Notes: generated by a model not told the origin, from the sequence alone. DNA of 63,594 nucleotides, filler included, from Nemertoderma westbladi (GCA_032718475.1; 4 parts of 4 records of this genome joined end to end with filler, not necessarily neighbours in it), one strand, 5' to 3'; numbered from the whole stretch's first letter, positions 3,546 to 63,594 are shown. A program made the numbers and translations.

Positions 3546-4379
3546 GTTTCTGTTTTCTTAATCCCCTGAACACCGTAATTTACTTTATTTTTTCTTAATC
3601 CCCTTCACAAAAAAATAAATTAAATGTGGCCTAAATCAGCCACCGTATAAAAGTTAATATTAATTTAATATATTAGTATTAATAGTAATAAAAAAAATTT
3701 TTGAAAGAAAGGACTATTTCTTTCATTACCTTTTTACTTTTTTTTAACTAATTTTACAGCATACACAATACCGAAATGAAACTAAATTGTTTATACCGGG
3801 ACCGGGACCGGGACCGGTACCGAATTAGGACAGGTACAGACAGGCTGACAGGGTGTACAGTAGGCTACAATCAATGACTGCTGAAGCAGTAGACCTTGGC
3901 TACAATATGTAAAAAGGAGTTACCGGTAGCCGGAGATAGATGTCAATAAATCGTCTGTACTGTTGTTTGTAAACAGTACAGTACTGTAAGACTAGAAGAC
4001 AGTAGTACTGTACATTTTCATAAAGATAATTTAAGGTAATGTGGAAATCCTTGTCGTAAGTATCATGTTCTTGGTGTAAGAAAGTCAAGTGAAAAACATC
4101 GTTTCACAATATTGCCGTAAAGGTTGTCGTAGCTACGATAACGTAAATTGACTTAACGTAAGATTAGTTAAAACGTTCTCCGTTTTTGCGATGACGAAAA
4201 TTGTATTTACAGTATACTGTACGATACAAATATTTGGATGTTGCTACGCAACCAGAGTATATCATTGGCTAGTGTCTGAATGATGGATTGCATTGCCTAA
4301 AGAACGCATAGCGGTAATCGTAAGCGATATACAGTTTAACACCACGCACCCCAATAGTTGCCTCACTGATTCGACTGAT

Positions 4380-4740
4380 TCTGTGCACAAAAATTACGAA
4401 ATTAAAGCGTTTTGAACATTGAAAAATACAACGAGAGTAAAGTAATTTTTCAAAATGAGGCGTAGTCGATAGACATAAATGTGAAACAGTAGACCACATG
4501 GCATGAGATAGCTCTATGGCTGAACTGCCAATCGGAATCTGTTGACAGATCATGGAGTGATGTCCGAAAATCTTTTAACGATATGTGCTGCTTAGCCATA
4601 AAAACGGAAGGCTGCGTTTGATAGAGAGTAGGAGGCACTGGGGGACATGAATCACCGAATCCCATCAGCACGTGGGCGTAATTTATAATAGAAGAGATTT
4701 TACTGTCGGAGATATGTAGCTATTGGTATTCCTGGTTCTT
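4380..4740 (+). pseudogene. Myb/SANT-like DNA-binding ORF relic, typical of the second gene of PIF/Harbinger transposons
   Basis: Translation IEKYNESKVIFQNEA*SIDINVKQ*TTWHEIALWLNCQSESVDRSWSDVRKSFNDM, then after frameshifts RKAAFDRE..GTGG. This fits the W.EIA..LN...R.W..V.K...D.....K......TGGG pattern. Confidence 0.65.
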
Positions 4741-4849
4741 ACGAAAGCCTCGTTTGTCACACAGATCGGGAGAATGGCGAAACTGATCCCGTTCTAATCG
4801 ACACGTCACTTGTTTCAGATGTAAGTAATAATTAATAGTAGGTCTACAG

Positions 4850-5400
4850 TCATGAGCTACTATAGATACGACCCGCCAAGCTGTTGCAAAGCCCCAAAAT
4901 TTAGTGGGCCAGTTATCTATCTTCTAGATACAACCCCTGAAACAATACAGTAGGTCTAGCGCGTCGAAAGTACTTGTCCCTAACTAAAATTATCTCCTCT
5001 TTCAGATGAGACAAATAAAAATTTTATAGCTCCAGTAGTTTCGAGATATGAGGAGTTCCTGGCACCCATACCATATCAGCACTTTTGGGAATTGATAAAA
5101 TTATTCAAAATACAAGCATCACCCTACAAGACTTTGGTATAACCATTAAACCATATTATGCATTTTTGGTTAGTCGAATTAATTATTACTAATCGAAAGC
5201 GAAATTAGAATATTATCTACATTGTTTATTTTATAATAGACACTAAAAGAGCACCAAAATTACAAGTAGCTCGAAATTTTCAAATAGCCAAAAGTGGTAA
5301 TTAGGCCGTATAGTTTGGCTACTGAGGTTTTATAATGTGCTGATTTCATTGGCAAGGTTTATAAAATTGGGGTATTTTCAAAAATGACCAATGTTTCAGT
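4850..5400 (+). repeat. Dispersed repeat, copy A (inverted relative to 9690-10165)
   Basis: ~550 bp collinear reverse-complement similarity, e.g. TAGATACGACCCGCCAAGCTG and AAAGTACTTGTCCCTAACTAAAATTAT. Confidence 0.85.
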
Positions 5401-5839
5401 CGAAAATTCTAAGTGCCAACCAGTGCACTTCTAGTTCAGTACTGCAGTACTCTGGTACTGGTGAGGTAATGTAGTGAATTATTCAGTATGGGGTATTTGC
5501 ATTACACTGCACTACTGCGTTAGGCATTACATTACTGCTGATAGTGCTGACTGCATTGTGCTCTTACTGTGTTCTGGTGTTAGGCATCAATAATGCCTTA
5601 TCATTATTACATTACCTGATTACCTGTATTTATTTGACTGTTTATTATCACCTCTCTTTACACGGGCTGGCAGCCACGGGCACGGGGGCCTAATTTAATC
5701 TGGACATAGTATCTGAATCTGTACTGTATGGAGGGGAGGCCGTAGCAGACTGTAGTTCAGTTGGAAAGTGCTGTGTGTATAGATGACGCTCGCTCGCTCG
5801 GTCTACAGAGTGGCACTTACAGTAGTTCGACTAGTCAAG

Positions 5840-6120
5840 GCTTTTTTATAGATCAAATGACAGAATGACACCAGTGCCTACCACTAACATTTGTACATTT
5901 CGACGTGCGATATATTCAGTAAACCCGGAGTCTGTTCCGACTTCATTGTGCTATAAATGCCTCAAATTCCTCGGAGACCGCCAGTAAAAAGAATGTACCG
6001 TCCATCGTCTATCGAAATTCATGAAGGAGAGTAAAATTAGTTATTTATCTAATCTAGAGATGAAGCTACTGCTCGACTTGGGGTTGGAGGGTCCGGTTGT
6101 TCTTTAAGAATCATCGTGCT
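5840..6120 (-). pseudogene. Possible heavily decayed piggyBac-like transposase fragment
   Basis: Minus-strand translation SLD*INN*FYSPS*ISIDDGRYILFTGGLRGI*GIYSTMK ... TGVILSFDL resembles the Y.P...hSIDE.MI.F.GR..hKQY...K region. Many stops. Confidence 0.35.
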
Positions 6121-6905
6121 AGGTTTATTCTTCTGCCTAAACCAGCGGGACCCCAATCTGCCCTTTCGGAGGATCTCAAGTAAGACAATATGCGTGGCCA
6201 CCTTAACAGTGTTCGTTCTTACTATGTATCTTGGATTTAATAGACAAAGGTAATTGATACATAATATATATGCTGACGTTTAACACTATCTGCTATCTGG
6301 CTCGGGCTATACGGGCTATATTACTACAGTAATTAATTGGCCAGTGGGGGGGGTTCCTTTAGAAATTTTGTAGATCTTTGCTCAAAAATTTCAATTTTGA
6401 TGGTATAAGGGATTTCGAGGACGCTAATTACGATAAAACATGTCAAACTTTCTGGCAAATTTTAATTTTCTGGCAATGCATCAATCATTTTTGGTGCTAT
6501 TTTCTGATTTTGCCCCCCCAGGACGAAAAGTACAAGTAAAAAATTGTCAAACTAAACATTTTGTGTTTGGTTTGATAATTCTAAACTTATACGGGTTTTC
6601 GAGGTAGCTGATCGCGATGAAAGTAGTTATAAATATTTCTGGTATGTACAAAAACCAATTTTGGTGCCATTTTGGTGCTCCAAAACGAAAAGTACAAGTA
6701 GCAAAAATTTGAAACTGTTAAATTTTGCCTTTGGTTTGGTAATTCTGACACTATACTGTTTTTCAAGGTCGCTAATCACGATACTACTACTACTAGGTCG
6801 AGCGAACTCGGACAGTGGAAATGAGATCCTTCCAGGCTTCCCGATTCTCCATAGTTATCGCAATTTCGTTTCTCCCAAGTTCAGTATGCCTTTCAAGTTG
6901 ATCTA

Positions 6906-8826
6906 CAGTCGGGGTCTCAAAGTGCATCTGTTCTTTGAGATTTTCTCAAAGAACTAAAAGTGTCTCAAATTTCTAAAAGTGGTCCAAGAAAATGACAAAG
7001 TGTCCTCAAAGATTTCAAAGTAGTACTGTCAGTCATTTCATACAGTCCTGCCTGAAGCTGGCTATGGTATGGGGTATATTGCATTTGACTATAGGGTATA
7101 ATATAAGTAATAAAAACCTCTATGAAACAATAAAGATGCCTCCAAAAAATACTGCAGTAATAAATATTTGTTACTGAAAGTAAGAATTAAACTTACTGCA
7201 GTAATAAAAAATTGTATTTTTCTGCAGTAACAAATAATTAGTTACTGCAGTAGAAATTTTTATTCAATTATTTATTAATATTGATTATTGCAGTAATAAA
7301 TATTTTTTACTGCAGTAATAAATATTTATTACTGCAGTAATAAATATTTGTTACTGCAGTAATAAATATTTATTATTTAATTAATTTAAATTTAAATTAA
7401 TTTAATTAATTTAATTAATTTATATTTAGACTCTTTAGAGACGCCATAATTGGGGTCTATCGGAATGTGTTGGTATTTGTGTCATAGACAGTTTGTCTGT
7501 TGCCCTATCTATATTAATGTATAGTGCTAAAACTGTACTGTTTAAATTTGTTTAGACCACGTGAACGCCGAATACCTTTACCAATGCATTTCAATGGTCA
7601 ACCAGCCATACTTTGCCGCACTGTAAATTATGTTATACAAAGTAAAGAATAACGATAGAGGCAGGAATAAAGATAAATGATTCAAGCGCACTAATTGGCT
7701 GTTCCCATAGATGTTTTAGGCATTGTTGGTGCGCAATGCATATGGTCAGAGCGACCGCCCAGTCTGCCAAAATCTATTATGTAATCAAATGGTACCACAA
7801 GCCAAGCAAAGCATGTGACAGTTCTTTCCGGCTCTGCACCTGTTTGTTTGAAGGTCGCCGACCGTGGGTCGCTACTCGCTAGCTGTGATTGATCGTTTAA
7901 ACTGGGTGCCGCTTTGCCAGAAGGCAGTACACATCAATTGAATATGAGGCAAACATTTAAAATATGCTCAAATATAAACGCCAGCGGCAGGGGATATTTT
8001 AATATCTCTATTAAGCTAAAACAACACAAGATTGTAGCCGTTCTATCGTACTTGAAAGTCGAAAGCCTTTCTTAGTTTTTAAGAAGGAATTATCGTGCTC
8101 TCGTCAACATAGTTATCATATTAATTAAACAGTTAAGGTAGTACGGTTTGACCTGAGGTGACTAATGAAATGAATAACAAAAGCTATTACAAGCTTTCTC
8201 CCAACAGGGCTTCTTTAGGTCATTATAATGAAACTACGTATACACAGAGAAACTACAGTGCAGTTTCTCTTATATTAATTGTTAATCTGATATTGTATTA
8301 TGTTATTAAAATAATCAATCTTGTCAAGCATTAATCTTGTTTCCCTAATTATGTTTCATGTATTATTTGAATGAATGTTTTTTAGAACGACTTTAGGGTG
8401 CCGTAAATTCAATTTGTACTTGCGACCGAAAACCCATCCCGTAATGACCTCAGGAACCTCAATTTGATAAATTAATGGGAATATAGCTTCTATGCAACAA
8501 CTGGCCAGCACACAAGTATCACTTTGTTGCCCGCATAATATTGTTCCCCGAGAATGCCTCTGCCTCTCAGCTTACCACGAGCTGTCAATCAGGAATACCT
8601 CGGAGTTTATTTTCTCAAAGAATTAAAAGTGCCGCAAACTACCTCAAAGTGACATTTCTCAAAGAATTCAAAGTGCCTAAAAGCAGGAAATCACTTTGAG
8701 ATTCCCAACTAAAAGTGTCTACAAGAATTCAAAGCGGCCGTTGGGAGTAATGTAATGACTTTTAGACACTTTTAGAAAAACTTTGAGAAAATCTCAAAGA
8801 ACAGATGCACTTTGAGACCCCGACTG
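6906..8826. mobile_element. Non-autonomous Tc1/mariner-type element (MITE), TA target duplication
   Basis: TA|CAGTCGGGGTCTCAAAGTGCATCTGTTCTTTGAGATTTTCTCAAAG at 6906 and its exact reverse complement ending at 8826|TA. Confidence 0.9.
7140..7378. repeat. ~22-bp tandem repeat (TTACTGCAGTAATAAATATTTR)
   Basis: Repeated near-palindromic TTACTGCAGTAA core, inside the MITE. Confidence 0.8.
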
Positions 8827-9689
8827 TATATATGTTATGGCTGGTCGTCCACGACTACGCTTTCCATGAGTTGGTTGCCAGAGAAGTAGATCTGGAATGA
8901 CCTCGTCTTTACTTCGCCAGCAGTGCCCACTGAATCTTAATCTGCGTTGACGGAGGGTTGTTGATACAGGTGGTATTGTACCATAAAGCTTGTCGTTTGT
9001 CATGTGTTGTCTCCAGCTGATGTTTAGGGCTGCCCTTAGTAGTCTTGTGTAGCAAACATCAATTCGTCATCTAATCACGTTACAACTCGTTAAAAATAAT
9101 TCGTGGTAATGCAACTATCGTTTTTCGTGTTTGTCTGGTGGGACGAAAAATGCAAGTAGCCTAAAATTTCAAAGAGAAAAAATCAAATTTGGTTGGATGG
9201 ATAATACGATATTTATGAGTGTCATATTCGAGATCGGCATCCCAAAAAACCCCAAATGTTATAAAATCAGGTTGATTTGGTAATGATTTTTCATTATGAT
9301 ATTTGTGCTACTGTATTTGTATTTTTCGTGCCACACATTGACACGTATCTAAAAAAAAGCCGTAATCAACAAGGTACGATATTTTTCAGTGTCATATTCG
9401 TGATCAGCATCCCAAAAAACCCCAAATGTTAAAAATCAGGTTGATTTGGTAATGATTTTTCATTATGAAGTATTTTTCGTGCCGCACATTGACACGTATC
9501 CAAAAAAGCCAAAAAAAACACATGGTCATAAAATCAATTTGTTTTCGTGGTGAATTTTCATTATCATATTTTCACTACTTGTTTTTTTCGTGCTCCAGGG
9601 GCACAAATAACTGACTAATAACTAATATAACAATATGTCTGTCTATGTTGTTATTTTACACAAATCTTCGATATGTTTGATGTAGAGGA

Positions 9690-10165
9690 ATAAACCTTCC
9701 CAATGAAAGCAACACATTCTAAAACCTCAGTAGCCAAACTGTATGGCCAATTTACCACGTTTGAAAAAAGTGCTTCTTGCACTTTTGGTGCTCTTTTAGT
9801 ATATATTGATAAAAAAATGAAAATGTTGCTTCTAATCTTACTTTCGATTACTAATAATGAATTCAACAAACCAAAAAAGCATAGTATAGTTTAATGGTTA
9901 TATCTAAGTCTTTAAAGGATGAGTATTTTGTGTAATTTTATCAATTCCAGGAACTCCTCATACTGTATCTCGAAAACTATTGGAGCTATTAACTTTTTAT
10001 TTGTCTCATCTGAAAGAGGATATAATTTTAGTTAGGGACAAGTACTTTCGAAGCAGTAGACCTATTGTTTCAGGGGTTCTACAGTATATAAGAGAAATAA
10101 CTGGCCCACTAAATTGAGGGGCTTTGCAGCAGCTTGGCGGGTCGTATCTAATAGTAGGTCATTGT
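9690..10165 (-). repeat. Dispersed repeat, copy B (inverted relative to 4850-5400)
   Basis: Reverse-complement match to copy A. Confidence 0.85.
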
Positions 10166-10237
10166 ACAGTAGGCCTAGTAATAAAGTTTTTTACTGCGAG
10201 CTAGTATTTTAGATTTTTTTTTAATAATATTACAATA

Positions 10238-10480
10238 TGGCCCGTATGCATAAAACACTTACGACGATCGTAACTTTACGATGATCGTAAGTTTCACATT
10301 TCCGATGATCGTAAATATAATCGGTATGCATAAACATTGACGATGATCGTAACTTTGTGATGATCGTAACTTTACGATTGATATCAATCGTAACTTTATG
10401 ATTGATAATACCTGCCCGTAAAAGTTACGATCGGGATTTCTATCAGCTGAGATTAACAGGTTGCCAGGCAACAAGCCAAA
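10238..10480. mobile_element. Probable terminus of a Harbinger-like non-autonomous element with subterminal repeats
   Basis: GGCCCGTATGCATAAA start followed by repeated ACGATGATCGTAACTTT units. No partner end found. Confidence 0.4.
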
Positions 10481-10512
10481 ACAATACTGTTTAACGTGGG
10501 TATAGGTGCTTT

Positions 10513-11667
10513 GGGGTAAATCTTTTCGACCTACGCGTAGGCCTACGCGTAGCTACGCATAGTTCGCAACATTGGGTCATATATCACCAGTTTCAGAGTT
10601 TTAACATTAACTACGCGTAGGTGCTACGCGTAGCTACGCGTAGGTCCTACGCGACCTACGCGTAGGTGCTACGTATAACTACGCGTAGGTGCTACCCATA
10701 ACTATGCCTATAAGTCGTTTATCATTAGTAGGCCTACGTATTCCAAGCGGTTCAGTACTAAAATAAGACCATACGGTATGTTCAATAAACAACCCACAAC
10801 CATCAAATGCTTTCAACAGTAATGCATCCTATACCTGTATACTCTATATAGAGGAATACCCTAAGACTACATATTCTTCACTTCATGCGTTGCGGGTGCT
10901 AAAATGTGTTACCGGTAATAATGTTTAGAGTTCAAAAATAGTTTACAAAGGAAATAGGCCGATGGTTCTTATCGATTCTCTATGCTTTTTATTGCCTTTG
11001 TTCACGATAGGGCAAGGATATATTTAATATGTTAACCCCTTGACAAGGGAAGGGGGAGACTAAATTGTCTACCATGATTGGTTGCTCTTGTTATTTGACC
11101 AAACAATTTGATTATATGCAGTATTTATCAGCTTTCGCTTAACCTCTTCACCGGTAGACTGGTCGCTTTATTTACTACTGTTCAATATTTAAATAATCCA
11201 ATGGAAACAAAGATACTTGAATCATGAGACGTGAATTTTAAGTTTACTTTTTATTCATCCTCTGTGTTTGTATGTGAAAGAGCCGAATATTATTTATTAC
11301 CAGTGCTGTATGTAGAGATATGAGTTTCCGATTCTGTTATTACATTTGTCTGATAATCAGATACCTGACATATACCGATACTTCCCTAACAACTCAACCC
11401 TACCGGACCTGAAATGAGAAATCATTGTTATCAGGACTGCTACGCGTAGCACCTACGCGTAGCTACGCGTAGCACCTACGCGTAGTTTCAAATTACCTAC
11501 GCGTAGTTCCAAAATAACTACGCGTAGTTTTAAAACACCTACGCGTAGTTGTTAAAAAGGCAGTGAGTCTGGCCCTACCGGTAAATGACAGGAATGGAAG
11601 TTACAAACTACGCGTAGCTACGCGTAGCTACGCGTAGGCCTACGCGTAGGTCGAAAAGATTTACCCC
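10513..11667. mobile_element. MITE with long TIRs and CTACGCGTAG palindromic subterminal repeats
   Basis: GGGGTAAATCTTTTCGACCTACGCGTAGGCCTACGCGTAGCTACGC at 10513 and its reverse complement ending at 11667. TGCTTT is duplicated on both flanks (10507-10512, 11668-11673). Confidence 0.9.
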
Positions 11668-12817
11668 TGCTTTGTTATGTTTACGTTACCACCGGTATGG
11701 ACACATAATTCTGCATACAGCTACAGAATATTGGCGAGCGCTTAGTGAGTAATGCCATAATGGTTTTACTTATAAGTATTCGCACGTGCTAAAATGTGGA
11801 AACAGCTGGTAATACCTAGGAACACCTGTACCTGTAACGTGCCATTTTTTTGAAAAACATGTTTGACAACAATTGGTACTAGAGTGCAAAGAGATATACA
11901 AGTATTATAGCTAAAGCTACTGTACCATAGAAATTACTAGGTAGGCCCTACAATGATAATTTTTTAACAAACTGCACAACTCCCCAGTAGTAGGAGAAGC
12001 ATAGATCCCCCATAACTCCTCCCTAGCTTGGGCTACGGGCTGCATCTCGGAGGCAATTAAAAAATGCCAAATTTCTGCGCTAAATCGAGGTGTTTAATGA
12101 CCATCTGTCACCATCAATATTGATTCGCGTCGTTGCCTTCAACCAATCGTTGCTTATCACCTACGCGTAGCCTAACCTCACGATGCCTGCCTTACTCGAC
12201 AACTGTTACCACCCGTGAGTATTGATTCGCGTTGTTGCATCAACCAACCATCGCATATTCATCTTCGCGTAACCTAACTTCTCAACGCATGGCTAGCCCC
12301 CACTACGCTATTATATTATATATCGATTGCCAACTCACCACGGCTACTCTTCGACGGCTGTCGCCAAACCAATCAATCCAACCAACCAAGCAGCCTGCCT
12401 ACCAGTCCAATCCAACGCTATTATGATACGTGTTGAAATTCCGCCACGTTCCAGCTACACATATACGAACAACATTTCCATAGTAGTTACTCAACCTAAC
12501 CAATCCCGCAGCATCTGTGCCATATTGAAAGGCTTCCACCACTAACATTATACTGTGCGTTTTTTTATTATAATAATTATTGATTATTACACACACACAC
12601 GCACACACACAACCCTATGATTCATATTCTTTCACGTATTTCCTATCCACGCAATCAACCAGCCAGCTATTCATCCATGTTGCTCCCCATCTCTTTTCTT
12701 ATTCGTTGATGATTATGACACGTACCATCTCTTCTTCGTTGACTATGCCACATCGCAAATTTTTATATATATAAGTGAATGTTTTAATAAAATTCATCAC
12801 TTGTAATCTTCTTCATG

Positions 12818-13118
12818 GTAATATATTGATACCATATCTAATTTTTTTGTTCTCACTCTGACATTGTGTTTTTTTTCCTTAATAATTTATACATTATCTT
12901 ACTCGTTGTATATTCGTTGGTCGGAAAACGACACCTCATAAAATGATACTGATTCCAGCATTGGGTATCGACTCAAAAACGAAAATCTGAGCTACGTGTC
13001 TCGCCCGATCTTTGTTTTTGAGTCGATACCTAATGTCGAACTCAGCATCATTTTTCTTAGGCGTCGTCTTCCGACCAAACACAATTTTAGAGTGAGAACT
13101 ATGGTGTCAATTTATTAC
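12818..13118 (+). ncRNA. Candidate ~300-nt structured RNA / long imperfect hairpin in the Polinton
   Basis: Nested complementary arms: 12818-12836/13100-13118, 12849-12871/13077-13099, TTGGTCGGAA(12917)/TTCCGACCAA, and CATTGGGTATCGACTCAAAAAC/GTTTTTGAGTCGATACCTAATG. No ORF. The structure is seen; RNA function is inferred. Confidence 0.5.
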
Positions 13119-13178
13119 AGCAATACGGTTTAAAATTTATCACTTGTAATATTTTTCGTATTTATTATTATTATTATT

Positions 13179-14246
13179 ATGGCCTTAACGCAAAAAACCG
13201 GAGCAACAAATAGCTGGAAATTTACTTACAATAAATATACTTGTACCGTCGTTCACAGCAAGTATTTTATTGTGGAATCTCAGGAGGACAACGAATCAAT
13301 TTGTTTTTCCCATCAAGATACCCGCTATTTGTTAGACATTCTAGAAACAACCAACAACAACAACCAACATCAATCCAGACCAGCAATTATACCAGGTAGG
13401 ATATATCCCACTCCTCGTTTTGCGCGGGGAAATTTGAATATTTCCATCAACCCCACATCGGGTGATGTTTACGTTCAGAAACAAGGCAAATGTAAAGTTC
13501 TCAACAAAGCTTTTACTGAAGTTCTAATTCAATACAGAGGGAAATTATTGCAATTTCTCTCTCCACCGCTAGAGATTATTAGCGATCAATTCTACATTGA
13601 ATTATCAAATCCAGAGTTTATTGGATTTGTAACAGCTTTTAAAGGAACCAACTATGTTGGCTTATGGAAAATCAGCCTCAGATACATTGATAGTGTTGGT
13701 TTTAACTATTATACGGGTTTCAATTTGTCAAAACAGGAACTAACTGTTTTGCTGCGAGAGTGGGACAACCAAGTCGCTGAAACAGACAAGCATCTTTTTG
13801 ATAAAAATATCATTCAATTATCAGACCGTCTCAAAATGATTAAAACCAATAATAAAAAAATTATTATCACCAACACCGATAATTCTACGGAAGTAGGCGC
13901 CGGCGGAAATTCTATCGAGTTGCATTACTTGAATGATAAAGCCCATATTAGTTTTCTCAAAGAATCGCTGGATAGCGTTTCTCTTACTGAAGCCCACGTT
14001 GACGGCTTTGTCCTTTTGGATAAACCTAAAGCGTTCGTAGAGATCCCATCACCTAATCCGGATGTTGAAGAGAGCTGCTCTCAACCGCAACAGGTCTTTC
14101 CTGAAATATTACCTCGGAAGCCAAGATCATCGAGTAAATTTACCAACACATCACCTGCAAAGAAACAGAAAGTTGTCAGTAACCCAGTTCTAGTAGAGCC
14201 TGTTACTAATTCTCCATGGAAACCAGATTATTATCCTAACATGTAA
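13179..14246 (+). CDS. Polinton ORF, 355 aa, with a probable PC4-like ssDNA-binding fold and a basic NLS-like C-terminus
   Basis: Intact ORF. Segment FIGFVTAFKGTNYVGLWK...YTGFNLSKQELTVL resembles the PC4 pattern (V.V..FKG...hDIR...KGI.L...Q...L). PAKKQK near the C-terminus. Confidence 0.65.
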   Translation: MALTQKTGATNSWKFTYNKYTCTVVHSKYFIVESQEDNESICFSHQDTRYLLDILETTNNNNQHQSRPAIIPGRIYPTPRFARGNLNISINPTSGDVYVQKQGKCKVLNKAFTEVLIQYRGKLLQFLSPPLEIISDQFYIELSNPEFIGFVTAFKGTNYVGLWKISLRYIDSVGFNYYTGFNLSKQELTVLLREWDNQVAETDKHLFDKNIIQLSDRLKMIKTNNKKIIITNTDNSTEVGAGGNSIELHYLNDKAHISFLKESLDSVSLTEAHVDGFVLLDKPKAFVEIPSPNPDVEESCSQPQQVFPEILPRKPRSSSKFTNTSPAKKQKVVSNPVLVEPVTNSPWKPDYYPNM

Positions 14247-14277
14247 GCCTAATCATAAGTTAAACTCTTTGCGGTTT

Positions 14278-14370
14278 CCAATAGTCATAAGCGATTGGTG
14301 ATTGGTTTAAAATTATTTCACTCGCTAGCATATAAATGTTTAGATGTAGTCAATATCATATCATTTCATT
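14278..14370 (+). promoter_or_regulatory. Pol II core promoter of the PolB gene
   Basis: CCAAT/ATTGG boxes at 14278-14305, TATAAA at 14331 and initiator-like TCATTT at 14361, exactly 30 nt later. Confidence 0.55.
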
Positions 14371-14429
14371 TTATTTTAATTTTTGGAGATATTTTATTAT
14401 TATTATTATTTATCTAAACAAACTTCAAC

Positions 14430-21348: not shown

Positions 21349-21501
21349 CTGTGGCTGAAACTGAATGATCAATGTAACTGAAAACTCCCCGTAACGTCCC
21401 AACATTGTTGTTTTAATTGTAATTTGTTTTATCGTAAATGTTAATTGTTGTCTATTTTACAATGTATTGCCCCGGGGTGGGTGGGGGGGGGGGGGGGGGG
21501 G

Positions 21502-28467: not shown

Positions 28468-28750
28468 GGTTCCACCTTGGTGTAGTGGTCGCATTGAATT
28501 CACATCTCCCGTACAGCCGTAGGTCGTGGGTTCGATCCTCACATGGACCAGGGCAGTTTTCGTTTCGGCACGAATGCTTTAAAGGGACCAGCCAGGGCGC
28601 ATCTCTGCCTTGCATAGGCCTAGCTAAATGAGTACTGGAGTTTCCTCTGGGGAGTAAAGTTCTGGGGGGACCGCACTTGAAATAAGTCGTCAGACTTTGT
28701 GCGTAATCCCTGGCAGCCTGGCCTAGCGGCCGAAGAAAATTTACTTTTAC
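28468..28750 (+). mobile_element. tRNA-derived SINE, full length
   Basis: A box TGGTGTAGTGG (28478), B box GGTTCGATCC (28529), central AAATGAGTAC, T-rich tail. Second copy at 31490-31758. Confidence 0.9.
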
Positions 28751-30036: not shown

Positions 30037-30239
30037 GGATGTAACCGCCCTTGTCATGTTGTGTAAAGTATTTACAGCCGATATTTTTCTATTATTAACA
30101 ACTGGCTGACTGGACTCTGCTACAGCTAGTGTCATCTGATTATTTAAGCAAATGTTGTTCAATTCTATCAAACATATTAAATATAGGATGGCTTAATCGC
30201 CTGTCCTTATCTGATCTGATCTGACGGTATCTGACACTT

Positions 30240-44102: not shown

Positions 44103-44138
<36 letters not shown>

Positions 44139-51720: not shown

Positions 51721-53660
51721 TCATTATGTAATCATCAGCAATGAGAATTCATAATCGAGGTATTCCAAAAATTCTTTCATACCCAAAGCTCTATTATATC
51801 ATTGTTAATTAATTTAAGCCGGCACCTTAAATATTGTATAATCTTAACTCTCAATGCAGTAATAATTATATTTTCTATTGTGTAGTTTATATTGTTTATA
51901 ATGTTGACATATCACACCATTATATATCTGTGCTATCTGTTAGTTATATAGGAGGAGGTGTTCTCGTTATATCTTATAAGCCATTGTTGGCTGGGGGCAA
52001 CTTGCCCATGACATTAAATTGCATTCATTCATTCATATCTATCAATATGACAGAACAACACCCTGCTAAGATTTAGTTAGGCTAAGGGGGTTTTCCTGGT
52101 CTCTGATTTTTTTTCAGAAGTTATTTTTCAAGTTTTTCATTTTATAGTTATCTGTCTGTCTGTTTATAGAGATCTATCTGCCTGACCAACAGTCTGTCTG
52201 TCAAAATAAAAGAAGTGCACATTAAACATTAACTAACACTAACATAAACTAACACTTTTGGTGTGGGGCTTTTCATGGTCGCCATTTGCCATTCCGATGG
52301 CAGTTTTCAAATTTGATGGCTTCTAAACTCTCTGTCTGTCTGTCTAACTGCCCCACAGAATTACCCACAGACTGATACGCAGGCATACAGACATACACAA
52401 CAGTATCAATTTTGAAAACTTTCAAACGAAGTGAAATCAATGAACAAGAAAACCCCTTAAAGGAAATTTTTGAGCCCTGATAATTGGCTTTTTCATAAGA
52501 ACAAACCAACAGTCTGATTTATTGAAAGTTCGTAACATGTTGATTTTGGAACCAAGTATCGTATGGAATCCATCAAGGTTTTACATCACGCATATAATTA
52601 ATACCTCTTGCAAACATACCTATTTTACCGCAGTCTTATAGGAAATTAAATATTGCATTGCAAACAATGAATCACATTGTATGAAATTGGCTGGGAAAAC
52701 CAAGTGATTTGCATAACGCAGTCTAGACAAGTCCAAAGAAAAATATAATATTGTTTTATACAATAATATTCTATACTCACTGGCAACTCACAAAGCAGCA
52801 ATATCATTGTCAAACTTCAGAATATAGGATTAGCCATGAGATGAAAGCAAACACAAACACTTGCAATTCTAGCAATATTTAGAGCATTATGTTTGTTATA
52901 TTTGCAGTTTGACTTAATTATCCAGTAGATTATATCTTAACTTGGTGATTAAACATACAGATCAGTGGTAGAAATATGTAATATTAGTGGGATGATTAAA
53001 ATATGTAGTGAATAACAAAGAATAATTAATACACCTTTATACTTGTCTTTCATATTCAGTAGGATTCCGTGTCAACACTGTGAAAAGTAATTTCAAGCAG
53101 TGGCTGGGGCTGCGGCCCCAGCGGAATTATTAAGAAGCCCCCCCCCCCCCCCCCAATTAATAAAGACGGGGGGGGGGGGGGGGGGGGGGGTAGGTTCGGG
53201 TACCAAATGAAACAATAAACCCAGCCCCTCCAATGTCCCTTATAAACAATCAGCAGAAACTTAGCTATAAAGGTAAATTTCTATACAAAAAAATATATAT
53301 TTGCACAACAAAATTCAATTGAATTAGAAATTTCAAAAAGTAAGAAGGTTATGTAGTTGACCTATTGAATTTAAACCTAATTCGAGAGGAGATGCGGACA
53401 AATGAGATCCGCACAATGCGGACCCAAACAAAAAGTATGATTTTAAAAATGAGGTTCGAATTGACCTGCTCCCAATTGTCCGGGTCCGAATTGTTCGGAT
53501 GCAAATCCGTTGAGAGACTCTACTCTGTAATAGTTTATAGAAAATCTGGAACGTTTCGTATAATTACTTTACACATCATCAGCCGAAATAACGGTAAAAA
53601 TTATGCCTAAAAAAATATTTTTTTATCACATCATTACAGTACAGTACATCACATTACATC

Positions 53661-53790
53661 ATTATATTGGTCGTGATGCTACTTAACTACGACCTTCTAC
53701 TAAAAGAAAGCATCATTATTTGTAGAGATAAACCCAAACTGAATGTACAGGGCACCTCATTCCACCGGACGCTATTATACCCTTAAAACT
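53661..53790 (+). pseudogene. Penelope-like element relic (GIY-YIG endonuclease C-terminus)
   Basis: IGRDA.NYDLLLKESIIICRDKPKLNVQGTS fits the L.hKEShhI...KP.LN motif. Confidence 0.65.
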
Positions 53791-54016
53791 TTCTATATTA
53801 CTGTATATTCTTCTATACCCTTTCTGCTAACCTACACTACTATAACCTGCTTTACATACACAGCGACAAGACTGTATAAGTTCCCCCCATATGCACTGCA
53901 CTCACTACTTAATATTTTCTACAATACAATCTCATATTCTAACCTCCCGTAGTGTAGGCCTACCGGTACCGTTTTTGTTCCCCCCCCCCCCCCCCCCCCA
54001 TATGCACTGAACTCAC

Positions 54017-54742
54017 TACTGTGGCCCTTGATACACTGTAACCCTGGCACACTGTGGCCCCTGGCACACTGTGGGCACTGGCAGACTGCGGCCTCTGGCA
54101 CACTGTGGACACTGGCAGACTGCGGCCTCTGGCACACTGTGGCCCCTGGCACACTTTGGCTCCTGGTACACTGCGGCCCTGGCACACTGTGGCCCTTGGC
54201 ACACAGAGGCCCTGGCACACTTCGGCCCCTGGCACACTGCGCACGTGGCACACTGCGGCCTCTGGCACACTGTGGCCCCTGACACACTGCGGCCCCTGGT
54301 ACACTGCGGCCCCTGGCACACTGCGGCCCCTGGCACACTGCGGCCCCTGGCACTTTGCGGCCCCTGGCACACTGCGGCCCCTGGTACACTGCTGCCCCTG
54401 GTACACTGCGGCCCATGGTACACTGAGGCCCCTGGCACACTGCGGCCCTGGCACACTGCGGTCCCTGGTACACTGCGGCCCCTGGCACACTGCGGCCCCT
54501 GGTACACTGCGGCCCCTGGCACACTGCAGTCCCTCGCACACTGCGGCCCTGGCACACTGCGGCTCCGTGCACACTGCGGCCCTGGCACACTGCGGCTCCT
54601 GGCACACTGCGGCCCTGGCACACTGCGGCTCCTGGCACACTGCGGCCCCTGGCACACTGAGGCCCCTGGCACACTGTGGACCCTGGCACACTGCGGCCCC
54701 TGGTACTCTGCGGCCCCTGGTACTCTCCGGCCCCCGGCACAC
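54017..54742. repeat. 17-bp GC-rich minisatellite (TGGCACACTGCGGCCCC)
   Basis: About 40 tandem copies. A short inverted copy lies at 45261-45286. Confidence 0.97.
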
Positions 54743-54879
54743 AGCATTAAGATTAACCCGCATTTGGAATTCGCTAGATATCAATATGAAACAAATACAA
54801 AATATACAAAATATTGTGCTAATTTCGGGGTTTATCAACGATTAGTTGGGGGGGGGGGGGGGGGGGGGGGGTTAGTGCG

Positions 54880-55081
54880 GTAATAATGTAATGTCAATAT
54901 ATGTTTACAGTACAGCACTACAGTAGGGCATTCCATCCAATGGCGATGCTGCTTCTTGATATTTCCCATCAACCATCAGTGACGGTTGGCTCCGCCCATG
55001 CCAAGCTGCCTCTGTTATTTTTATATTGTAATTATAACGGAGTTTCGGGAAATAAAAGATATAATAATAATAATAATAATC
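54880..55081 (+). mobile_element. Probable LINE 3' UTR with AATAAA and (TAA)n tail
   Basis: AATAAAAGATATAATAATAATAATAATAAT directly followed by AAGCT and the resumed BEL integrase. Confidence 0.55.
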
Positions 55082-55596
55082 AAGCTACCTAAATGATAGA
55101 CCCCTTCTCCCCATTTCGTCCAGTCCACAAGCGATGGAACCCCTCACACCAGCTCATTTCTAACTAAGAAAACCGGTGCTTATGCTACCCAAATCCGCAT
55201 GGATGGCAGGATGGCGATGAACTATTGAGACGTACCTGGCAAATATCCTATCTCGGCTACTATCTCGGCGATTCGCTACACACTTTGAAAGATACTATCT
55301 AGCCTCGATCCAAATGGTTTTCTAAAAGGGAAAATGTATCTATTGGTGACATAGTAGTACTCTTAGTGGATCAAGACCAACCTAGAAAGAACTCGGAAAC
55401 GGGTCGTATAACTGAAATTCATACGGGCAATGATGATTTAGTACGTTCAGTTGAATTAGCCATTTGGAGAGCTAAACCCATACCCAAAGTACACTATTTC
55501 AATCGACCAATCGGACACCTTTGTTTACTAGAACTGGCAAGGGAACGTTTTGGTAACTATGGGCAACAACGGGTTAGGCCAAGTAGTCTGACCTAA
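55082..55596 (+). mobile_element. BEL/Pao integrase C-terminal half (continuation of 47281-51720, opposite strand)
   Basis: YLNDRPLLPISSSPQAMEPLTPAHF*L ... RSKWFSKRENVSIGDIVVLLVDQDQPR..GRITEIHTGNDDLVRSVEL..RPIGHLCLLE. Confidence 0.9.
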
Positions 55597-56040
55597 AAAC
55601 CAGAGTAACGTCTTGTAGAAGGTTACGATTGAGTATGTAATTATTTATTAGCCATTTAATATAGCATAGGTATTAGTATTAGACTACACCGCGGGTAGCA
55701 ACAAAACCTACTTATGTTAATTGTATGTTGTATATCCTGGCCGCATGCAACAATTTAAATTAATGACAAATTATTTGATTTAAAAATTTAATTAATTTAA
55801 AATTAATGACTAATTACTAACGACAATACTCAATCGTGGAAGCGGATTTGTGTGACGTTACGAGCATATCAATATGCGAAAAATTTTCAAAAATTCTGTA
55901 TTTAATACAAATTAATAATAATAACCAAAATTAGAACAACCAAATTAAATATCACCATAAATAATCAATTAACTATTACAGTAGTTACTAGTGTGAAATA
56001 AGTGTGAAGAGTGAGCGTTCTAATCTCTACATTTACCAAT

Positions 56041-57900
56041 ATGTCACCGAACAATTTGGATAAATTAAATAAACAACGTGTTACTCTGGAAACACAAATA
56101 GAGCCCGTATAATTGTGAATACAACCAGTTTGTACAGTTTGCATTATATGAGCAATTCAACCTGTTATCATGGATACACAAAAATAGTGACATTCTGGTA
56201 AATATTAAAGTTATGTCTTTTTGAACCGTATTTGGACGATAAATTAAATCAAAAGGTTCAAATAACCTCTAAATAAGACTAAATCGTGTGAATTCAAAGC
56301 ATATATGATTGTCTAACCTTTCTTTGATGCGAGGATTATAGTAGACCCATTATGGCTCCGGACCAATCCCCCATCTCCCTGGCTTGATGAGAGTTTAGCG
56401 TAAACGATTAAACGACGAATGTGAATTAGCTTCTTTGGTCCAACCCGCGGTCCAGACTCTAATAGAAGGGTTCCAAAGTAAAGCACATATTCATCCGTCT
56501 GGGTATGTAAAGTGTTTCAGTGTCGCTTACAGTCAAACCAACCGATACCTTTCAACACCAGCATCTCTAACCCCAACTTAGTCGCGGATGCTCCAATGTT
56601 GGAAGCCCATATTGTAGAGCCCCTCTATGATGAAACTGACGAATGGATTATCGCTCCCCCAGGTCGAGCTGATCAAATCAAGTCTTTAATTTGGGATAAA
56701 AACCTCAAAAGACCTCCATCCACCATTCTATGGGATTCAAGACCACCAGGATTTCGTCTTACTCAGTCAACATTATGTTATGAAGCCCAAGGATCCCGCC
56801 TGTAGTATGGATTTCCTACCTTTGGTTAATCCTCTTGATATCACGGAGATCGAGCCCATGCAGAAGCACCTCGACCATATAATCAAATTGAATACCTTTC
56901 GTAAACCTTTCAACATAACTATTGAAGATAAACCCGCGCCCCCTCGGAACCTCGCTAATTTTATCAGCGATCAGTTGATCCTTTGGAACATTGATGTACG
57001 ATTTAGAGAAGACAAACTCTCTATTATATTGAAAGGAAAGTCCGTTGTAGAGAATGTTTAGAGTTATAAGTCGGCAGTTATCGCCCGAGGTTCTATCAGA
57101 TCTCTGGATAGCCAATGGACGCCGGTGGAAGTAGATGAAACTGTCGCGTACCTCGAGTTCAATAATACTCTTGAGGTCATCCAACAATATGGCGTAATGC
57201 TGTATGATAATGAAGGTTCCATATCAGATGATGAACTCAGTTCAACCCGGTTAATACACATTCGTGGTTTAACAGGAGCTACACATGTTTTTACGCGAAC
57301 CTCCCGGAACGCCGACATTATCTTTACTCCTCCATCCCTTCAGGAGATGTTATCTCGACATGGCTAATTCGAGAAGTCTTACCGATATGTTCTAGAAACC
57401 GGTTCATCACCCTGCACTGGGTATAGAACCCTCGATGTTACCTCAACCCGTCTTGGACCTGATGTTTGACAAGAGGATCTGTAAACTTGGTTCAGCGATC
57501 TATCCCGACCTCTACAAGGACTTCGACTCCTTGTTAGACATTCACTATCCCTTTGCGGATACACAAATGATCCTCCCATGGACACAGGAACGTGGTTTCT
57601 TTCGCATTATCTATGAACGCGTAGGTAATGGAATGCGCCGAGCGGAACGCACCGGCATCTGACTTATCTCCTTCCATGAACTTGGATGGGACTTTAAGGA
57701 AGGTCGGTATAATCGTTATTTAAACTTATATGGTGATAATTATTCCCGTTATTATTATAATAATTTCAATGGAAACAATAAAAACAATTTCCTAATTATT
57801 TCAATGGTCCTTTATCCACCCCTGGTGCTGTTTATTCCAATGTGTCCCTCTTCAGCCTTCTCTCGCTATTTATATGGTATGTGAGAATTCTGCCATATCA
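56041..57900 (+). pseudogene. Decayed long ORF of unknown identity downstream of the BEL integrase
   Basis: Chain of abutting/overlapping plus-strand ORFs (56512-56805, 56780-57061, 57125-57367, 57435-57662) with globular-protein-like composition. Confidence 0.5.
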
Positions 57901-58080
57901 GGTTACTTGTAGTAGGACTTTAAGATCCCACCCATTACTGCTCGGCACCCTGCTTGTCAAGGTCAACTGCGAAGGGAAATTCCACAGTTTCGAATGTTTT
58001 CGAAGGTTTCTACCCCCCTTTGTTGGTATTGACAGTCAGTTCTATGATCCCATCTGAAAGGGACAATTGAATAAGCATTT

Positions 58081-58180
58081 NNNNNNNNNNNNNNNNNNNN
58101 NNNNNNNNNNNNNNNNNNNNNNNNTTAATTAATTAANNNNNNNNNNNNNNNNNNNNNNNNNNNNNNNNNNNNNNNNNNNN
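58081..58180. other. Assembly spacer
   Basis: N44-TTAATTAATTAA-N44. Confidence 0.97.
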
Positions 58181-58823
58181 ACCTGAGAGAGTGTACATCT
58201 CGTGGGAGACCTGAGAGTGTGTACATCTCGTGGGAGACCTGAGAGAGTGTACATCACTTGAGAGACCTGAGAGAGTGTACATCTCGTGGGAGACCTGAGA
58301 GAGTGTACATCTCGGGGAGACCTGAGAGAGTGTACATCTCGTGAGAGACCTGAGAGAGTGTACATCTCGTGGGAGACCTGAGAGAGTGTACATCACTTGA
58401 GAGACCTGAGAGAGTGTACATCTCGTGGGAGACCTGAGAGAGTTTACATCTCGGGGAAACCTGAGAGAGTGTACATCACTTGGAAGACCTGAGAGAGTGT
58501 ACATCTCGTGGGAGACCTGAGAGAGTTTACATCTCGGGGAAACCTGAGAGAGTGTACATCACTTGAGAGACCTGAGAGAGTGTACATCTCGTGGGAGACC
58601 TGAGAGAGTGTACATCTCGTGGGAGACCTGAGAGTGTGTACATCTCGTGGGAGACCTGAGAGGGTTTACATCTCGGGGAAACCTGAGAGAGTGTACATCA
58701 CTTGAGAGACCTGAGAGAGTGTACATCTCGTGGGAGACCTGAGAGAGTGTACATCTCGGGGAGACCTGAGAGAGTTTACATCTCGCGGGAGACCTGAGAG
58801 TGTACATCTCGTGGGAGACCTGA
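58181..58823. repeat. 28-bp minisatellite (ACCTGAGAGAGTGTACATCTCGTGGGAG) with recurring variants
   Basis: About 23 head-to-tail copies, no spacers. Confidence 0.97.
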
Positions 58824-60048
58824 GGGGCATTACGCGCTAGGCGATTACGCCCGAGGGGGCGTATTCTACAGGGGGGCAATTTCGACTGGGACACCGGTAT
58901 GCCTGTCTGCCTGAGGTGCGAGCCACGAAGTGAGCAAAGCCTTATCATATGGGTACCATTAACGAGTTGTCTGTCGTCGTCGTCATCTGTTGTAATTTTT
59001 TGATCGCTAATAACTCGGTTATTCCTTGATGAAATTAAACGAAACTTGGTATGTATGTAGTCCGGCTAAAGTTTATAAAGAATCTCAAGTTTGGTCAAAA
59101 ACCAAAGAACGCAACGAGTTTACAGTGGATACGAGTATCCATCTGCCATAAATCAGCAGTAAGTAAACAGGGCAACCTGATCCGATCCCCTATTGGCTAT
59201 TTACCTAAACAGACAGTTAGGTAAATATCATATCTTTTTCTCCTGATTGGATATAGGATCAGATGCTGTCAGATCAGATCAGATAAGATCAGATACTGTT
59301 GATGGCTTCTATCAGTGCAGCAGTGCCTAGCATCGTAACTTAATAACGCCCCCCCCCCCCCCCCCCCCAGACTGGAATCCATACACAATAAAAGTGTAAA
59401 AAAGCGTAATAAAAATTACAATAAAAGCGCGCCAATGTGGCGCGTGGGGCGCACGAAAATCGTAAAGCGCTCCGGCTTTGGCGCGTGGCGCTCCCAAAAA
59501 TAAAAACCGGCGCTGATTTGTTGGTTTAACAATTATGGAAGTGCCTTAAAAATTGCATTAGCTGTCAAAAATAATTCGGCTCGCTTCGCTCGCCTTTCTT
59601 TTTTCTGTGGGGCGAGACACGTTTATCTAAGAACGTTTATCTATCTGTTTAATTTTTGAGCCCTTTTTTATACTAGAATATAAAATATACTGTAACTGTA
59701 AGAACTCAAATCCCGACCGACTAATTAAATCTTAAACATAAACTAATCATAAACTGACAAATCCCTTAATACCACTACTCAAATCCCAATTGGTCAACCA
59801 ATTTAACAATAAATACTAAATGACTGGCGATGTAAATATGTGGTGTTACAGAAATTATAGCACGGCGAACCTTGGCATACGGTTCATATAGGGCAAATGG
59901 GGCATGTCCGTCTGTCTCTCTGGTAAATCTTTGAACGCGAATTTCTCGGCATCGCTGATTTGAAATTGAACCAAACTTAGTAGGTAAGTAGTAGAGGGAA
60001 AGTTTAGACAATTTGTAAAGTTTGGTGAAAAATCATCTATATAAAATG

Positions 60049-62015
60049 ACCTATATAAGGCGCAGTACGAGTCCCGACTCAAACAGACTACAGCGGCCAA
60101 GAATGCAGTTAAGACTGCATCTAGGTCCCTGAACAGGCAGTACTCTGTTAATCTACAGGAGCTAATAAACCAACAGGTTGATGCCATCAATGATGCTGAC
60201 GACAGCAGGCAATCATCCCAGGCATGGAAATCGACCAACTTGCTTATACTGGGCGGAAAAGCCAACCAACCACCAAGGTTAAGGCTGAATCACCAGCCGA
60301 TCGCCTCAATGGTTGGAAGGCCCACTTTGAAAAGCTCCTCAATAATGACAGGGTATTGCCTGATAACTTTATAGAAGTAAAAGTGTCGTCTGAGTCTGTA
60401 CTTCCCAGATATTCCCATTGGCGATATCTCCTTTGCAGAAGTGAAGGCTGCTGCAAAGAGCATTAAGACCAATCGTGCCAGTGGAGTAGATGGTGTTCCC
60501 CCTGAGGTCTTTAAAATACCTGAGTGTTTAAAGCTCATCTATCCCATCATAGTAGACATGTACAGTACAACAAGAGTCCCACAAGAAATGAAAACAAATA
60601 AGTTGGTGCCAGTTCCCAAGAAGGGCAACCTAACACTCTATGGTTCTTTTCGGGGAATCTCATTGATCTCGATTGCTGCAAATCTATACAATAGAATTAT
60701 ATTAAATCGCATCAGGGATCCCATTGAGAGACTGCTCCGTGGAAATCAGAATGGGTTCCGTAAAGGTCGTGGGACCATGGAGCCCATTTTGGCACTTAGA
60801 AGGATAATTGAAGAGTTATCAAAAAAGAAAGACAAGCATCTGGCTGTTATCTTTGTTGACTTCTTCAAGGCCTTTGATTCAGTCTCCCGCTCACGTATGT
60901 TCAGCATACTTTCATTATATGGGATTCCTAATGAAATTATTGCAGCAATCAGATCAGTATACGATGGTTCGACAACATTTGTGTCTTCTGTTGATGGTGA
61001 CACAGAACCATTTGAAGTGTTATGGGGCGTCCTCCAGGGAGACACACTTGCACCATTCTTGTTCATAATTGTGGTTGACTATGTTCTACGCATGTCCTTA
61101 GATCATCATAATGATGATGGGGTGATGATAACTCCACCTACTGGTTCCAGAAGTCGAGGAAATCCTGCCAAGTACCTAACTGATCTAGACTTTGCTGATG
61201 ACTTAGGAGTACTCTCAGAATCACTAGAGGGAGCCCAACGGCTCCTCAGCTCATTAGAACATGCTGCTTCTAGTGTTGGTCTTTTTATTAACTCCAGAAA
61301 GACCAAAATTTTGACAGTTAACTTTGAAAGTTCTCAGCAAGTCTCTGATCGGATGAGCATAAGCTCAAAGGATGGTATGCTTGAGCATGTGGACGATTTC
61401 TGTTACCTGGGATCATGGATCCGGAAGTCAGGTGAGGACCTTCGAATACGTAAGGGAAAGGCATGGGCAGCCTTGAATAGGCTTTCCAGGATTTGGAAGT
61501 CACCGAGAATTAATCGGAAACTTAAGGTCCGATTATTTAGAGCAGCAGTAGTTCCAGTACTCCTCTATGGGAGACCATGCTGGGCTCTAACTGCTGAGGA
61601 CACCAAATCTCTGGATGGCACATTCACAAGAATGCTACGCCGGGTTCATTGTGTCAATTACAATGCACACATCTCCAACTAGACACTATATAACATTGGA
61701 GGTGTCTCATTGGTTCCCCCAAGCTTGACACTAGAACAAAATCGCCTCCGCTTTGCAGGACATTGCTTTCGCCGTGAGGACCAGCCAGTGCATAATCTTG
61801 TACTTTGGCAGCCTCATGGAGTGAATAAGCATGGTGGACAGCCCATGACTTTCTTGAGACGCATCTTAAAGGACACTGGCCTTGAAGATGCGGATGATCT
61901 AGCAAATGTCATGGGTGATAGGGAGTTGTGGCGGCGCAATTTTGTCGACAAGCCGGCACAGCATTCTTAAAAATGCAGCTGCAATGCAGCATGCCGATAC
62001 TAGTAGTAGTAGTAG
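60049..62015 (+). mobile_element. 5'-truncated RTE-clade LINE
   Basis: RT ORF, (TAG)n tail at 62001-62015, AAAATG duplicated at 60043-60048 and 62016-62021. Confidence 0.92.
60441..61970 (+). pseudogene. RTE reverse transcriptase (frameshifted ORF)
   Basis: VPVPKKGNL..FRGISL, QNGFRKGR, FVDFFKAFDSV, GVLQGDTLAPFLF, LDFADD, FCYLGS, RLRFAGHCFR. Confidence 0.93.
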
Positions 62016-63594
62016 AAAATGTTAAATTTCTCGTGAACGCCTCATTTTCCAGAGCTGAAATTTTGGTTGCTTGTAGAGAATCATAAAGTCTATCTTCTAC
62101 GAAATTGAAAAGTTAAGACATTTAATTGGGGATCGGCTAGAGACTCCGAAGTAATGACATAGGCCTACCGGTACGGTACTGCTGTACTGTACACGTTCGT
62201 GGGGACTTCGCGCAGCACGAGAGTGCCTACGTACAAATTTTGGTTTAATTTAATCTGCAATTGCCCGACTTATTTCGGTTTTTACAAAAAGTCTGAACTG
62301 CAATTGCCCGACTTATTTCGGTTTTTATAAAAAGTCTGAAACTACCGGTACCGAGTGTACAGTCTTGTTTTGATAAAAACTCAAATTATTTCTAAACTTC
62401 TAATAGACTGCATACATAATAACAAAGTTGGTTTAATTCTAGTTATTATTGTTGGCTTTAAAGAATTAATATAAAAAACGTTAAAAATTTGCTTTGGCAC
62501 AGATATGATGCGAACCAGCGCGAGAAGATCCCATTGGATGGCTAGTCCAATGCCTTATCCACCCACGTATTACAGTTTTATACTGCAATTTCGTAATCAC
62601 TACTGATGAACATTACAGCAGCAATTAACTGTACCGGTAGGCCTACGCATTTTCCGAGTCTCTAGCGGATCCCCAATTAACTGTCTTAACTTTTCAATTT
62701 CGTAAAAGATAGACTTCATGATTATCTACGAGTAACCAAAATTTCAGCTCTGAAAAATGTGGCATTCCTGAGAAATTTAACATTTTGTACAAAGCACATA
62801 ATCTGTCGTAGCTGACGTCAGACTGCATGATTTTTCACCAAACTTCACAAATTTTCTAAACTTTCCTCTTACTACTTATCTACTAAGTTTGGTTCAATTC
62901 TGAACCAGCGATGCCGAGAAATTCGCGTTCAGAAATTTACCAGACAGACAGACAGACAGACAGACGGACATGCCCCATTGCATTGGAGCCTATATGAGTC
63001 GTATGCCAAAGCTCGCCGACTACGTGTCTCGCCCCACAAGCTGACAAGTACGAAATTGCAGAATAATAATTTGACACCACCTAGCGGATTAATATACTGT
63101 ATAATTGTATATCGATCGAATACATTTTATAGCATGGGGTATAGCAGGGTCCGAGCCACGAAGTTGGTGGAGCCTTTGCGAACTGGCGCTATCTCTTAGG
63201 GGGGTAGGTCAATTATGGCAAATAGTTCATTCAATACTTGATACTGTATGTCATCATCGTCGCTACGATTTTGACTTACTTATATCTTCATCGGATTTAA
63301 AGCTTTCGAGTCTAAAATTAGTAGGCATCAATAAGACCATAAGTTTTGTTTTTTAGGGACTTCCAGACACCATCAAATCCCCAGTCTCTCGCTAGAGGGC
63401 TCTTTTCTTTAAACCCGTTCTAGCTGAAACTTGGCATATTTGTACTAGACCATTAACTGTGTCATTCAAAGGAGGCTCATCTGTCTGTAGTTCTCTAGTC
63501 TGCCGCTAGAGGGCAAAATGTCTCAAAGTGCAATCACTGATTTAGCTGAAACATCAGATATGTGCTAGAACACGTCCGGTGTGTTTGCCGGGCT

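Follow-up and report, generated by a model that had tools for sequence, protein, structure and literature searches.

A stretch of 63,594 nt from Nemertoderma westbladi (GCA_032718475.1) carries a recurrent 8-base insertion, consisting of a CAG or CTG trimer and a second copy of the neighbouring 5-mer. We read these insertions as the excision footprints, or scars, of a DNA transposon that duplicates 5 bp of its target and is cut three bases inside its ends, and give this reading a probability of about 0.8. It fits the fixed 3+5 geometry, the absence of the trimer from empty sites, the occurrence of both trimers, a palindromic rule on the 5-mer and the near-absence of scars from reading frames. 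The stretch, called the window in the following, consists of four contigs separated by N spacers (1-17651, 17752-37876, 37977-58080 and 58181-63594), and all scar counts and donor searches refer to this 63.6-kb sample. Signs of animal-type DNA were found with Pfam, namely a C2H2 zinc-finger remnant, a homeodomain exon, a CAAP1-like frame, and remnants of BEL/Pao and long interspersed elements. Statements on published systems refer to those parts of the cited papers that were available to us.

Number, specificity and target rule of the scar words

The window contains 75 perfect words of the form (5-mer)-CAG/CTG-(same 5-mer), 29 with CAG and 46 with CTG. A low-complexity filter and the masking of tandem arrays each left 66 of them, and both together left 62. 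In dinucleotide shuffles within 1-kb blocks the mean count was 1.92 and the maximum 7 (200 shuffles), and Markov models gave 1.4-2.7. The words are thus about 30-fold above chance, and about two of the matches must be chance; simple-repeat matches lie at 727, 731, 62944-62952 and 26524. The initial annotation of this DNA had listed 24 such sites and estimated about 2 by chance. All 24 are perfect matches, with one position off by a single base (25491, given as ~25490); its observation holds, yet understated the number of words threefold.

The excess is restricted to 5-bp duplications and to the CAG/CTG trimer. With strands merged, CAG/CTG was found 66 times between 5-bp duplications, the next trimer 17 times, TGT/ACA 10 times and CAC/GTG 7 times. 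At 4-bp duplications CAG/CTG was unremarkable (23 vs 33 for the top trimer), and at 6-bp duplications it was outside the top 12, so that the comparison with other trimers and lengths that had been proposed earlier, run within the window, singles out CAG/CTG at 5 bp. The length of the trimer is strict: longer remnants (6-60 bases, CAG..CTG) between 5-bp duplications were absent from the window, while CTG..CAG gave 4 and five control pairs 1-2. Versions with one mismatch between the 5-mers showed a modest excess in contig 2 (25 vs 16 expected, P 0.025), and a crude estimate of ~4% mismatch between paired 5-mers suggests that the scars are young. Contigs 1-4 hold 11, 46, 6 and 3 matches (0.68, 2.54, 0.32 and 0.64 per kb), and the scars cluster at 18.3-18.9, 24.1-25.5 and 28.4-30.1 kb; scar density showed no link to CpG content in the window (rho -0.03). 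The signal is real, strong and specific.

The duplicated 5-mer had previously been called non-specific, a description that has to be withdrawn. Among the 124 second and fourth positions of the 62-site set, a single one breaks the rule by having G (position 2) or C (position 4), compared with a background of ~19% (P ~2e-10), and the depletion is also significant against the local background; before masking, 3 of 66 sites break the rule. The resulting target rule, N-H-N-D-N, is palindromic and kept in both scar orientations. We infer that a two-fold symmetric enzyme picks the target, since such an enzyme would give the depletion in both orientations. The middle base leans towards A/T without reaching significance (45 of 62, P 0.06), and the 5-mers have 35% GC compared with 39% in the local background. 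The target rule is a new observation that the initial annotation missed.

Scar sites, empty counterparts and TA-type scars

The sites in the window are the following (13-base words; numbers in brackets are starts).

2342..16043: scars or chance matches on contig 1 (2342, 2345, 3840, 5437, 5447, 5569, 5611, 5856, 6499, 10830, 16031); the words at 2342 and 2345 overlap each other and may be simple repeat, and 16031 lies inside an open Polinton-type polymerase frame and is likely a chance match
18273..18898: scar cluster 1, contig 2 (18273, 18305, 18378, 18509, 18536, 18554, 18570, 18678, 18886)
20125..20137: scar-like insertion in a 21-bp tandem array, with C at position 4 against the target rule; masked from the 62-site set
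24103..24115: scar where the frame of a pogo-type (DDE_1) transposase gene breaks, in its 5' part (tblastn and Pfam DDE_1)
24389..25503: scar cluster 2 (24389, 24398, 24432, 24460, 24564, 24574, 24749, 24881, 24969, 25223, 25296, 25307, 25362, 25491)
26524..26536: 8-base insertion in a 162-bp satellite unit (alignment of 8 units), which a (CAGC)n expansion would explain equally well
26576..26588: satellite scar, with the empty state in sister units (unit alignment)
26994..27006: satellite scar, with the empty state in sister units (unit alignment)
27182..27194: degenerate scar with one mismatch between the 5-mers, 8 bases longer than sister units
27354..27366: satellite scar, with the empty state in sister units (unit alignment)
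28367..30113: scar cluster 3 (28367, 28392, 28458, 28509, 28709, 28897, 29087, 29457, 29633, 29790, 30101)
28509..28521: scar in a repeat resembling a short interspersed element (SINE), for which the copy at 31492-31760 has an exact empty site
28709..28721: another scar of this SINE-like copy, again with an exact empty site in its sister
31466..33474: scars upstream of the CAAP1-like frame (31466, 31811, 32205, 32214, 33443, 33462)
42594..63048: sparse scars or chance matches on contigs 3 and 4 (42594, 47171, 51418, 55202, 59313, 62177, 63036)

That these words arose by insertion can be seen from repeat copies within the window. The SINE-like copy at 31492-31760 represents the empty state of both 28509 and 28709, for 28509 with 0 mismatches over 10 bases on each side, and sister units of the 162-bp satellite give a clean empty state for 26576, 26994 and 27354. 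The insertion at 20125 has empty sisters at 19874 and 20415 in its 21-bp array, and no alignable empty sister was found for 28458. In the empty copies the 5-mer is single and no trimer is present, and the trimer was therefore not copied from the flank. The earlier claim that sister copies show the empty state is borne out for the two SINE-like and the three satellite sites just named; at 26524, where the sisters are likewise empty, the 8 additional bases are ambiguous with the repeat expansion. In one satellite unit, a scar is accompanied by an inverted duplication of adjacent bases (27000-27035) which resembles a hairpin-repair footprint.

A further line of evidence comes from reading frames. 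The pogo-type DDE_1 transposase gene at 22537-24330 on the minus strand (~50% identity to its best homologues) switches its frame at the 24103 scar, where the tblastn alignment with the homologue P0008 passes from frame -2 to frame -1. Only one match (16031) falls within 14,615 bases of long reading frames; in this count the pogo interval ended at 24098, so that the frame-breaking scar at 24103 was left out.

Contigs from four public runs (X1-X4; three samples, three studies), whose type we took to be DNA as a guess and one of which may be the source of the window, bridge nine scars without the 8-base gap. The scars at 24881 and 24969 are bridged in all four runs, 25223 in X1 and X4, 25296 and 25307 in X4, 25362 and 25491 in X1, X3 and X4, and 28367 and 28392 in X2. 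The scars belong to the DNA and not to the assembly.

The window also abounds in shorter words of a related kind. TA-CAG/CTG-TA occurs 53 times compared with 9.4 in shuffles, TAGGCCTA 28 times compared with 0.4 and TACCGGTA 21 times compared with 0.7. Elements that target TA and end in CAG, GG and CC probably left these words as scars, and several excision systems therefore seem to have marked the genome. Across 1-kb bins, the density of the TA type correlates weakly with that of the 5-bp scars (rho 0.32, P 0.01), and TA is found at positions 4-5 of the 5-mer 16 times where 8 are expected. The 5-bp class is separate from the TA type, because 39 of the 62 sites have no TA beside the trimer.

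Proposed excision mechanism and its alternatives

Our proposal takes Sleeping Beauty as its model, which leaves TA-CAG-TA or TA-CTG-TA after the non-transferred strand is cut inside the ends and the 3' overhangs are end-joined (PMC6943129, PMC8151067, in the parts available). The same steps with a 5-bp target would yield exactly the scar seen. On landing, a transposase dimer would cut an N-H-N-D-N site with a 5-base stagger and insert the element there. On excision, the transferred strand would be cut at the element end and the other strand three bases inside, leaving the flank free of a hairpin. The two 3-base 3' overhangs could then pair at two of three positions, and end-joining would fix the middle mismatch either way, to CAG or to CTG. 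Repeated germline hopping would produce many scars, of which the frameshifting ones would be purged from working genes. The initial annotation had described a very active element with CAG..CTG ends and a 3-nt staggered cut. Its excision-scar reading is retained; the element, its activity and the cut are deduced, because no donor was found, and CTG..CAG ends are equally possible. The scar cannot orient its donor, because CAG..CTG and CTG..CAG ends alike would leave one mismatch in the three-base join, and its repair yields CAG or CTG in either case.

Several points weigh against excision. Its main weakness is that every step of the mechanism is derived from the scar. There are 60-odd scars and no donor element in 63.6 kb, and among the public-contig rows listed (265 indel and 5271 loose-end rows lie outside these) no filled or empty allele was found at a scar, an absence from a limited listing that is no evidence of fixation and says nothing on polymorphism. 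The sole transposase in the window, pogo, does not qualify as donor, its single visible end reading GGG beside TA. A candidate miniature inverted-repeat transposable element (MITE) at 10513-11667, considered as a CAG-ended donor lacking its left CAG, failed as well, and GGGG..CCCC ends with a 6-bp duplication fit it instead. Finally, repair bias rather than target choice could be behind part of the target rule; the shortened class 5-mer + C/G + 5-mer that such a bias would predict is, however, only weakly and not clearly above its controls (17 vs 9 and 12).

In one variant of the excision reading, the donor is a hAT5 element that cuts inside its ends instead of forming a hairpin on the flank, which would make the element less novel and leave the chemistry still new. 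We consider this unlikely, if far from negligible. Many hAT ends begin with CAG, and hAT5 occurs in marine invertebrates. The group is defined by 5-bp target duplications, as found here, and is placed in the animal hAT lineage that contains Blackjack (PMC12730594, in part). The studied hAT enzymes, in contrast, hairpin the flank, give variable footprints and leave no element ends, whereas the trimer here is fixed and independent of the flank: Hermes and Transib hairpin the donor site and Tol2 footprints vary (PMC8151067, in part), a chemistry that does not leave a constant trimer. Moreover, no hAT transposase was recognized by Pfam in 18 + 148 frames. A description of hAT5 termini, target rule or footprint was not found in the literature searched, to which the defining Repbase Reports do not belong, and the "hAT-5" in the available part of PMC6004678 is an unrelated 8-bp element.

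It is improbable that no element came and went at all, and that a site-selective nuclease or integrase made a 5-base staggered break to which repair added CAG or CTG from a small template, as in abortive retroelement insertion or templated end-joining. This would explain the many scars in a window free of donors, but the 5 and the 3 bases are both invariant, and neither a longer nor a shorter series accompanies them. Truncated retro-insertions are not fixed in length. A constant trimer in both orientations has its direct precedent only in transposon excision, as far as the available part of PMC6943129 covers this. That the words are duplications from ordinary slippage, or side products of Tc1/pogo scars at TA, is very improbable. 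These origins find support in the simple-repeat matches given above, in the doubled TA at positions 4-5 and in the abundance of TA-type scars. Against them stand the 39 sites with no TA beside the trimer, the persistence of the excess after low-complexity filtering and masking, and the fact that slippage copies existing bases whereas the trimer is absent from empty sites, by which slippage is largely refuted for most sites. To an assembly or sequencing artefact we attach hardly any weight. The window does consist of four joined contigs with the scars concentrated in one, and the bridging evidence comes from contigs rather than raw reads, one run being possibly the window's own source; yet nine scars are bridged, two of them in four runs from three samples and three studies, and degenerate scars with one mismatch exist, such as 27182.

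Within the excision reading, an undescribed non-hairpin DDE lineage is a tentative assignment with slightly less than an even chance, and some other described group with an unstudied footprint would be a surprise. Taking the readings together, we lean slightly towards an undescribed animal transposon lineage, or a hAT5 branch devoid of hairpin chemistry, which would combine a Sleeping Beauty-like 3-base exit with a 5-bp, near-random palindromic target, leaving about one scar per kb of non-coding DNA and almost no copies of itself.

Known systems, donor candidates and implications

The scars share with those of Sleeping Beauty and the Tc1/mariner group the CAG/CTG trimer in both forms and the fixed three bases between the target copies (in the papers cited above, as available), and are unlike them in having a varied 5-bp N-H-N-D-N target in place of TA. 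Tc1/mariner, including pogo, was rejected as the source, the duplication being 5 bp and varied, with the majority of sites lacking TA beside the trimer. Members of this group have a DD(34-35)D/E transposase within inverted ends, and their footprints are the terminal 2-4 bases of the element between the target copies; the fixed 3-base CAG/CTG, absent from empty sites, would fit such a footprint, though there is no donor end for comparison. Transib likewise makes 5-bp duplications, with invariant CAC ends and GC-rich targets (PMC1131882, in part). As a source, Transib/RAG was rejected on the trimer counts (CAC/GTG 7 vs CAG/CTG 66, if the trimer is assumed to be the element end) and on the 5-mers, which are not GC-rich at 35% GC.

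Elements of the CMCT clade end in CA..TG and duplicate 2-5 bp (PMC12730594, in part), and members other than Transib would be compatible with the scar if their ends were CAG..CTG; in the available part of that paper, no member is named that unites CAG ends with a 5-bp duplication and the retention of three end bases. In the Ginger2/TDD group, TDD-4/5 make 5-bp duplications and Ginger ends in TGT (PMC2836005, in part). This group, with its TGT..ACA ends, was rejected, as the TGT/ACA spacer (10) is at background. Sola duplicates a 4-bp target, and was rejected since CAG/CTG shows no excess at 4-bp duplications. In NuwaI (PHIS) it is the target word CWG that is duplicated, and the empty site contains it (the available part of PMC4482050); NuwaI fails because the trimer here is absent from empty sisters. 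A 5-bp CAG/CTG footprint was not described in the literature searched, which lies outside Repbase Reports and most subscription journals, and the donor family may therefore well be catalogued even if its footprint is not. Nothing decisive came from PMC4455052, PMC5753468, PMC5225508 and PMC8232201. The initial annotation had considered the element unassignable to a known superfamily; this is upheld for the geometry and chemistry combined and not for the 5-bp duplication alone, which occurs in hAT5 and, with 2-5 bp, in the CMCT clade (PMC12730594, in part), both absent from the groups that the initial annotation listed.

Systematic window searches for inverted-end elements (CAG..CTG, CTG..CAG and mixed) with a 5-bp duplication returned only chance-level pairs, in line with the earlier report that no intact donor is present. 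Apart from pogo, Pfam found no transposase in the 18 + 148 frames, Rfam gave 0 matches in the window, and metagenome, viral (pattern- and protein-based) and prokaryote-genome collections gave 0 matches to further DNA of this organism. The MITE at 10513-11667 is a 1.15-kb, high-copy element with 30-bp inverted ends and internal 10-bp repeat arrays. Its right end reads CTG followed by a 5-mer that recurs at the left end; the depth of the family begins at 10514, the loose ends before it (18, 12, 14 and 2 contigs) share no CA, and an X1 contig provides an empty site that fits a perfect 6-bp duplication. The base outside the common GGG end appears to be G or C, depending on the copy. A 1.9-kb element at 6906-8826 was rejected as donor on its TA-flanked rather than 5-bp-flanked CAG..CTG inverted ends; it is nested in a larger element (4832-10184) with ~500-bp inverted arms. 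The element at ~40755-41800 was rejected on its 9-bp duplication. Over 40745-41810 it shows 15-bp subterminal repeats in inverted arrays, an apparent 9-bp duplication and a nested insertion, and we take it to be Mutator-like.

Among the surroundings of the scars, the segment at 18900-19150, just downstream of scar cluster 1, is GC-richer and contains the word CCGGAAGT and what may be a first exon, closed by a GTAAGT donor; read by eye, this hints that scars accumulate beside promoters. The part of cluster 2 at 24.8-25.6 kb has low depth and is apparently single-copy DNA. A single, scar-free frame of 1282 aa occupies 33471-37319; its N-terminal part is a CAAP1 domain, and a 30-bp repeat lies towards the C-terminus. 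The Polinton-type region at 13134-17651, cut by the contig end, holds two frames to which Pfam gave no significant name, one of 370 aa and one of 1078 aa; the latter shows motifs like those of protein-primed polymerases, from which we read it as a Polinton-type polymerase. Homopolymer G or C tracts of ~15-34 bases lie at 21474-21507, 38259-38286, 44106-44137, 53139-53190 and 54848-54872.

If the excision reading is true, the target rule and the cutting geometry of a transposon can be read from its scars alone. The enzyme would combine a Tc1-like exit with a 5-bp near-random entry, a pairing outside all groups checked, and the scar would specify closely what to look for in the search for a possibly new transposase lineage, or else indicate that hAT enzymes can lose the flank hairpin they have in common with RAG. 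Such an enzyme, not limited to TA or TTAA sites, would be relevant to gene-transfer tools. For the genome itself, the densities in the four contigs (0.3-2.5 per kb) would suggest excision scars as a major source of small insertions, and the scars would form a fossil map of germline transposition sites.

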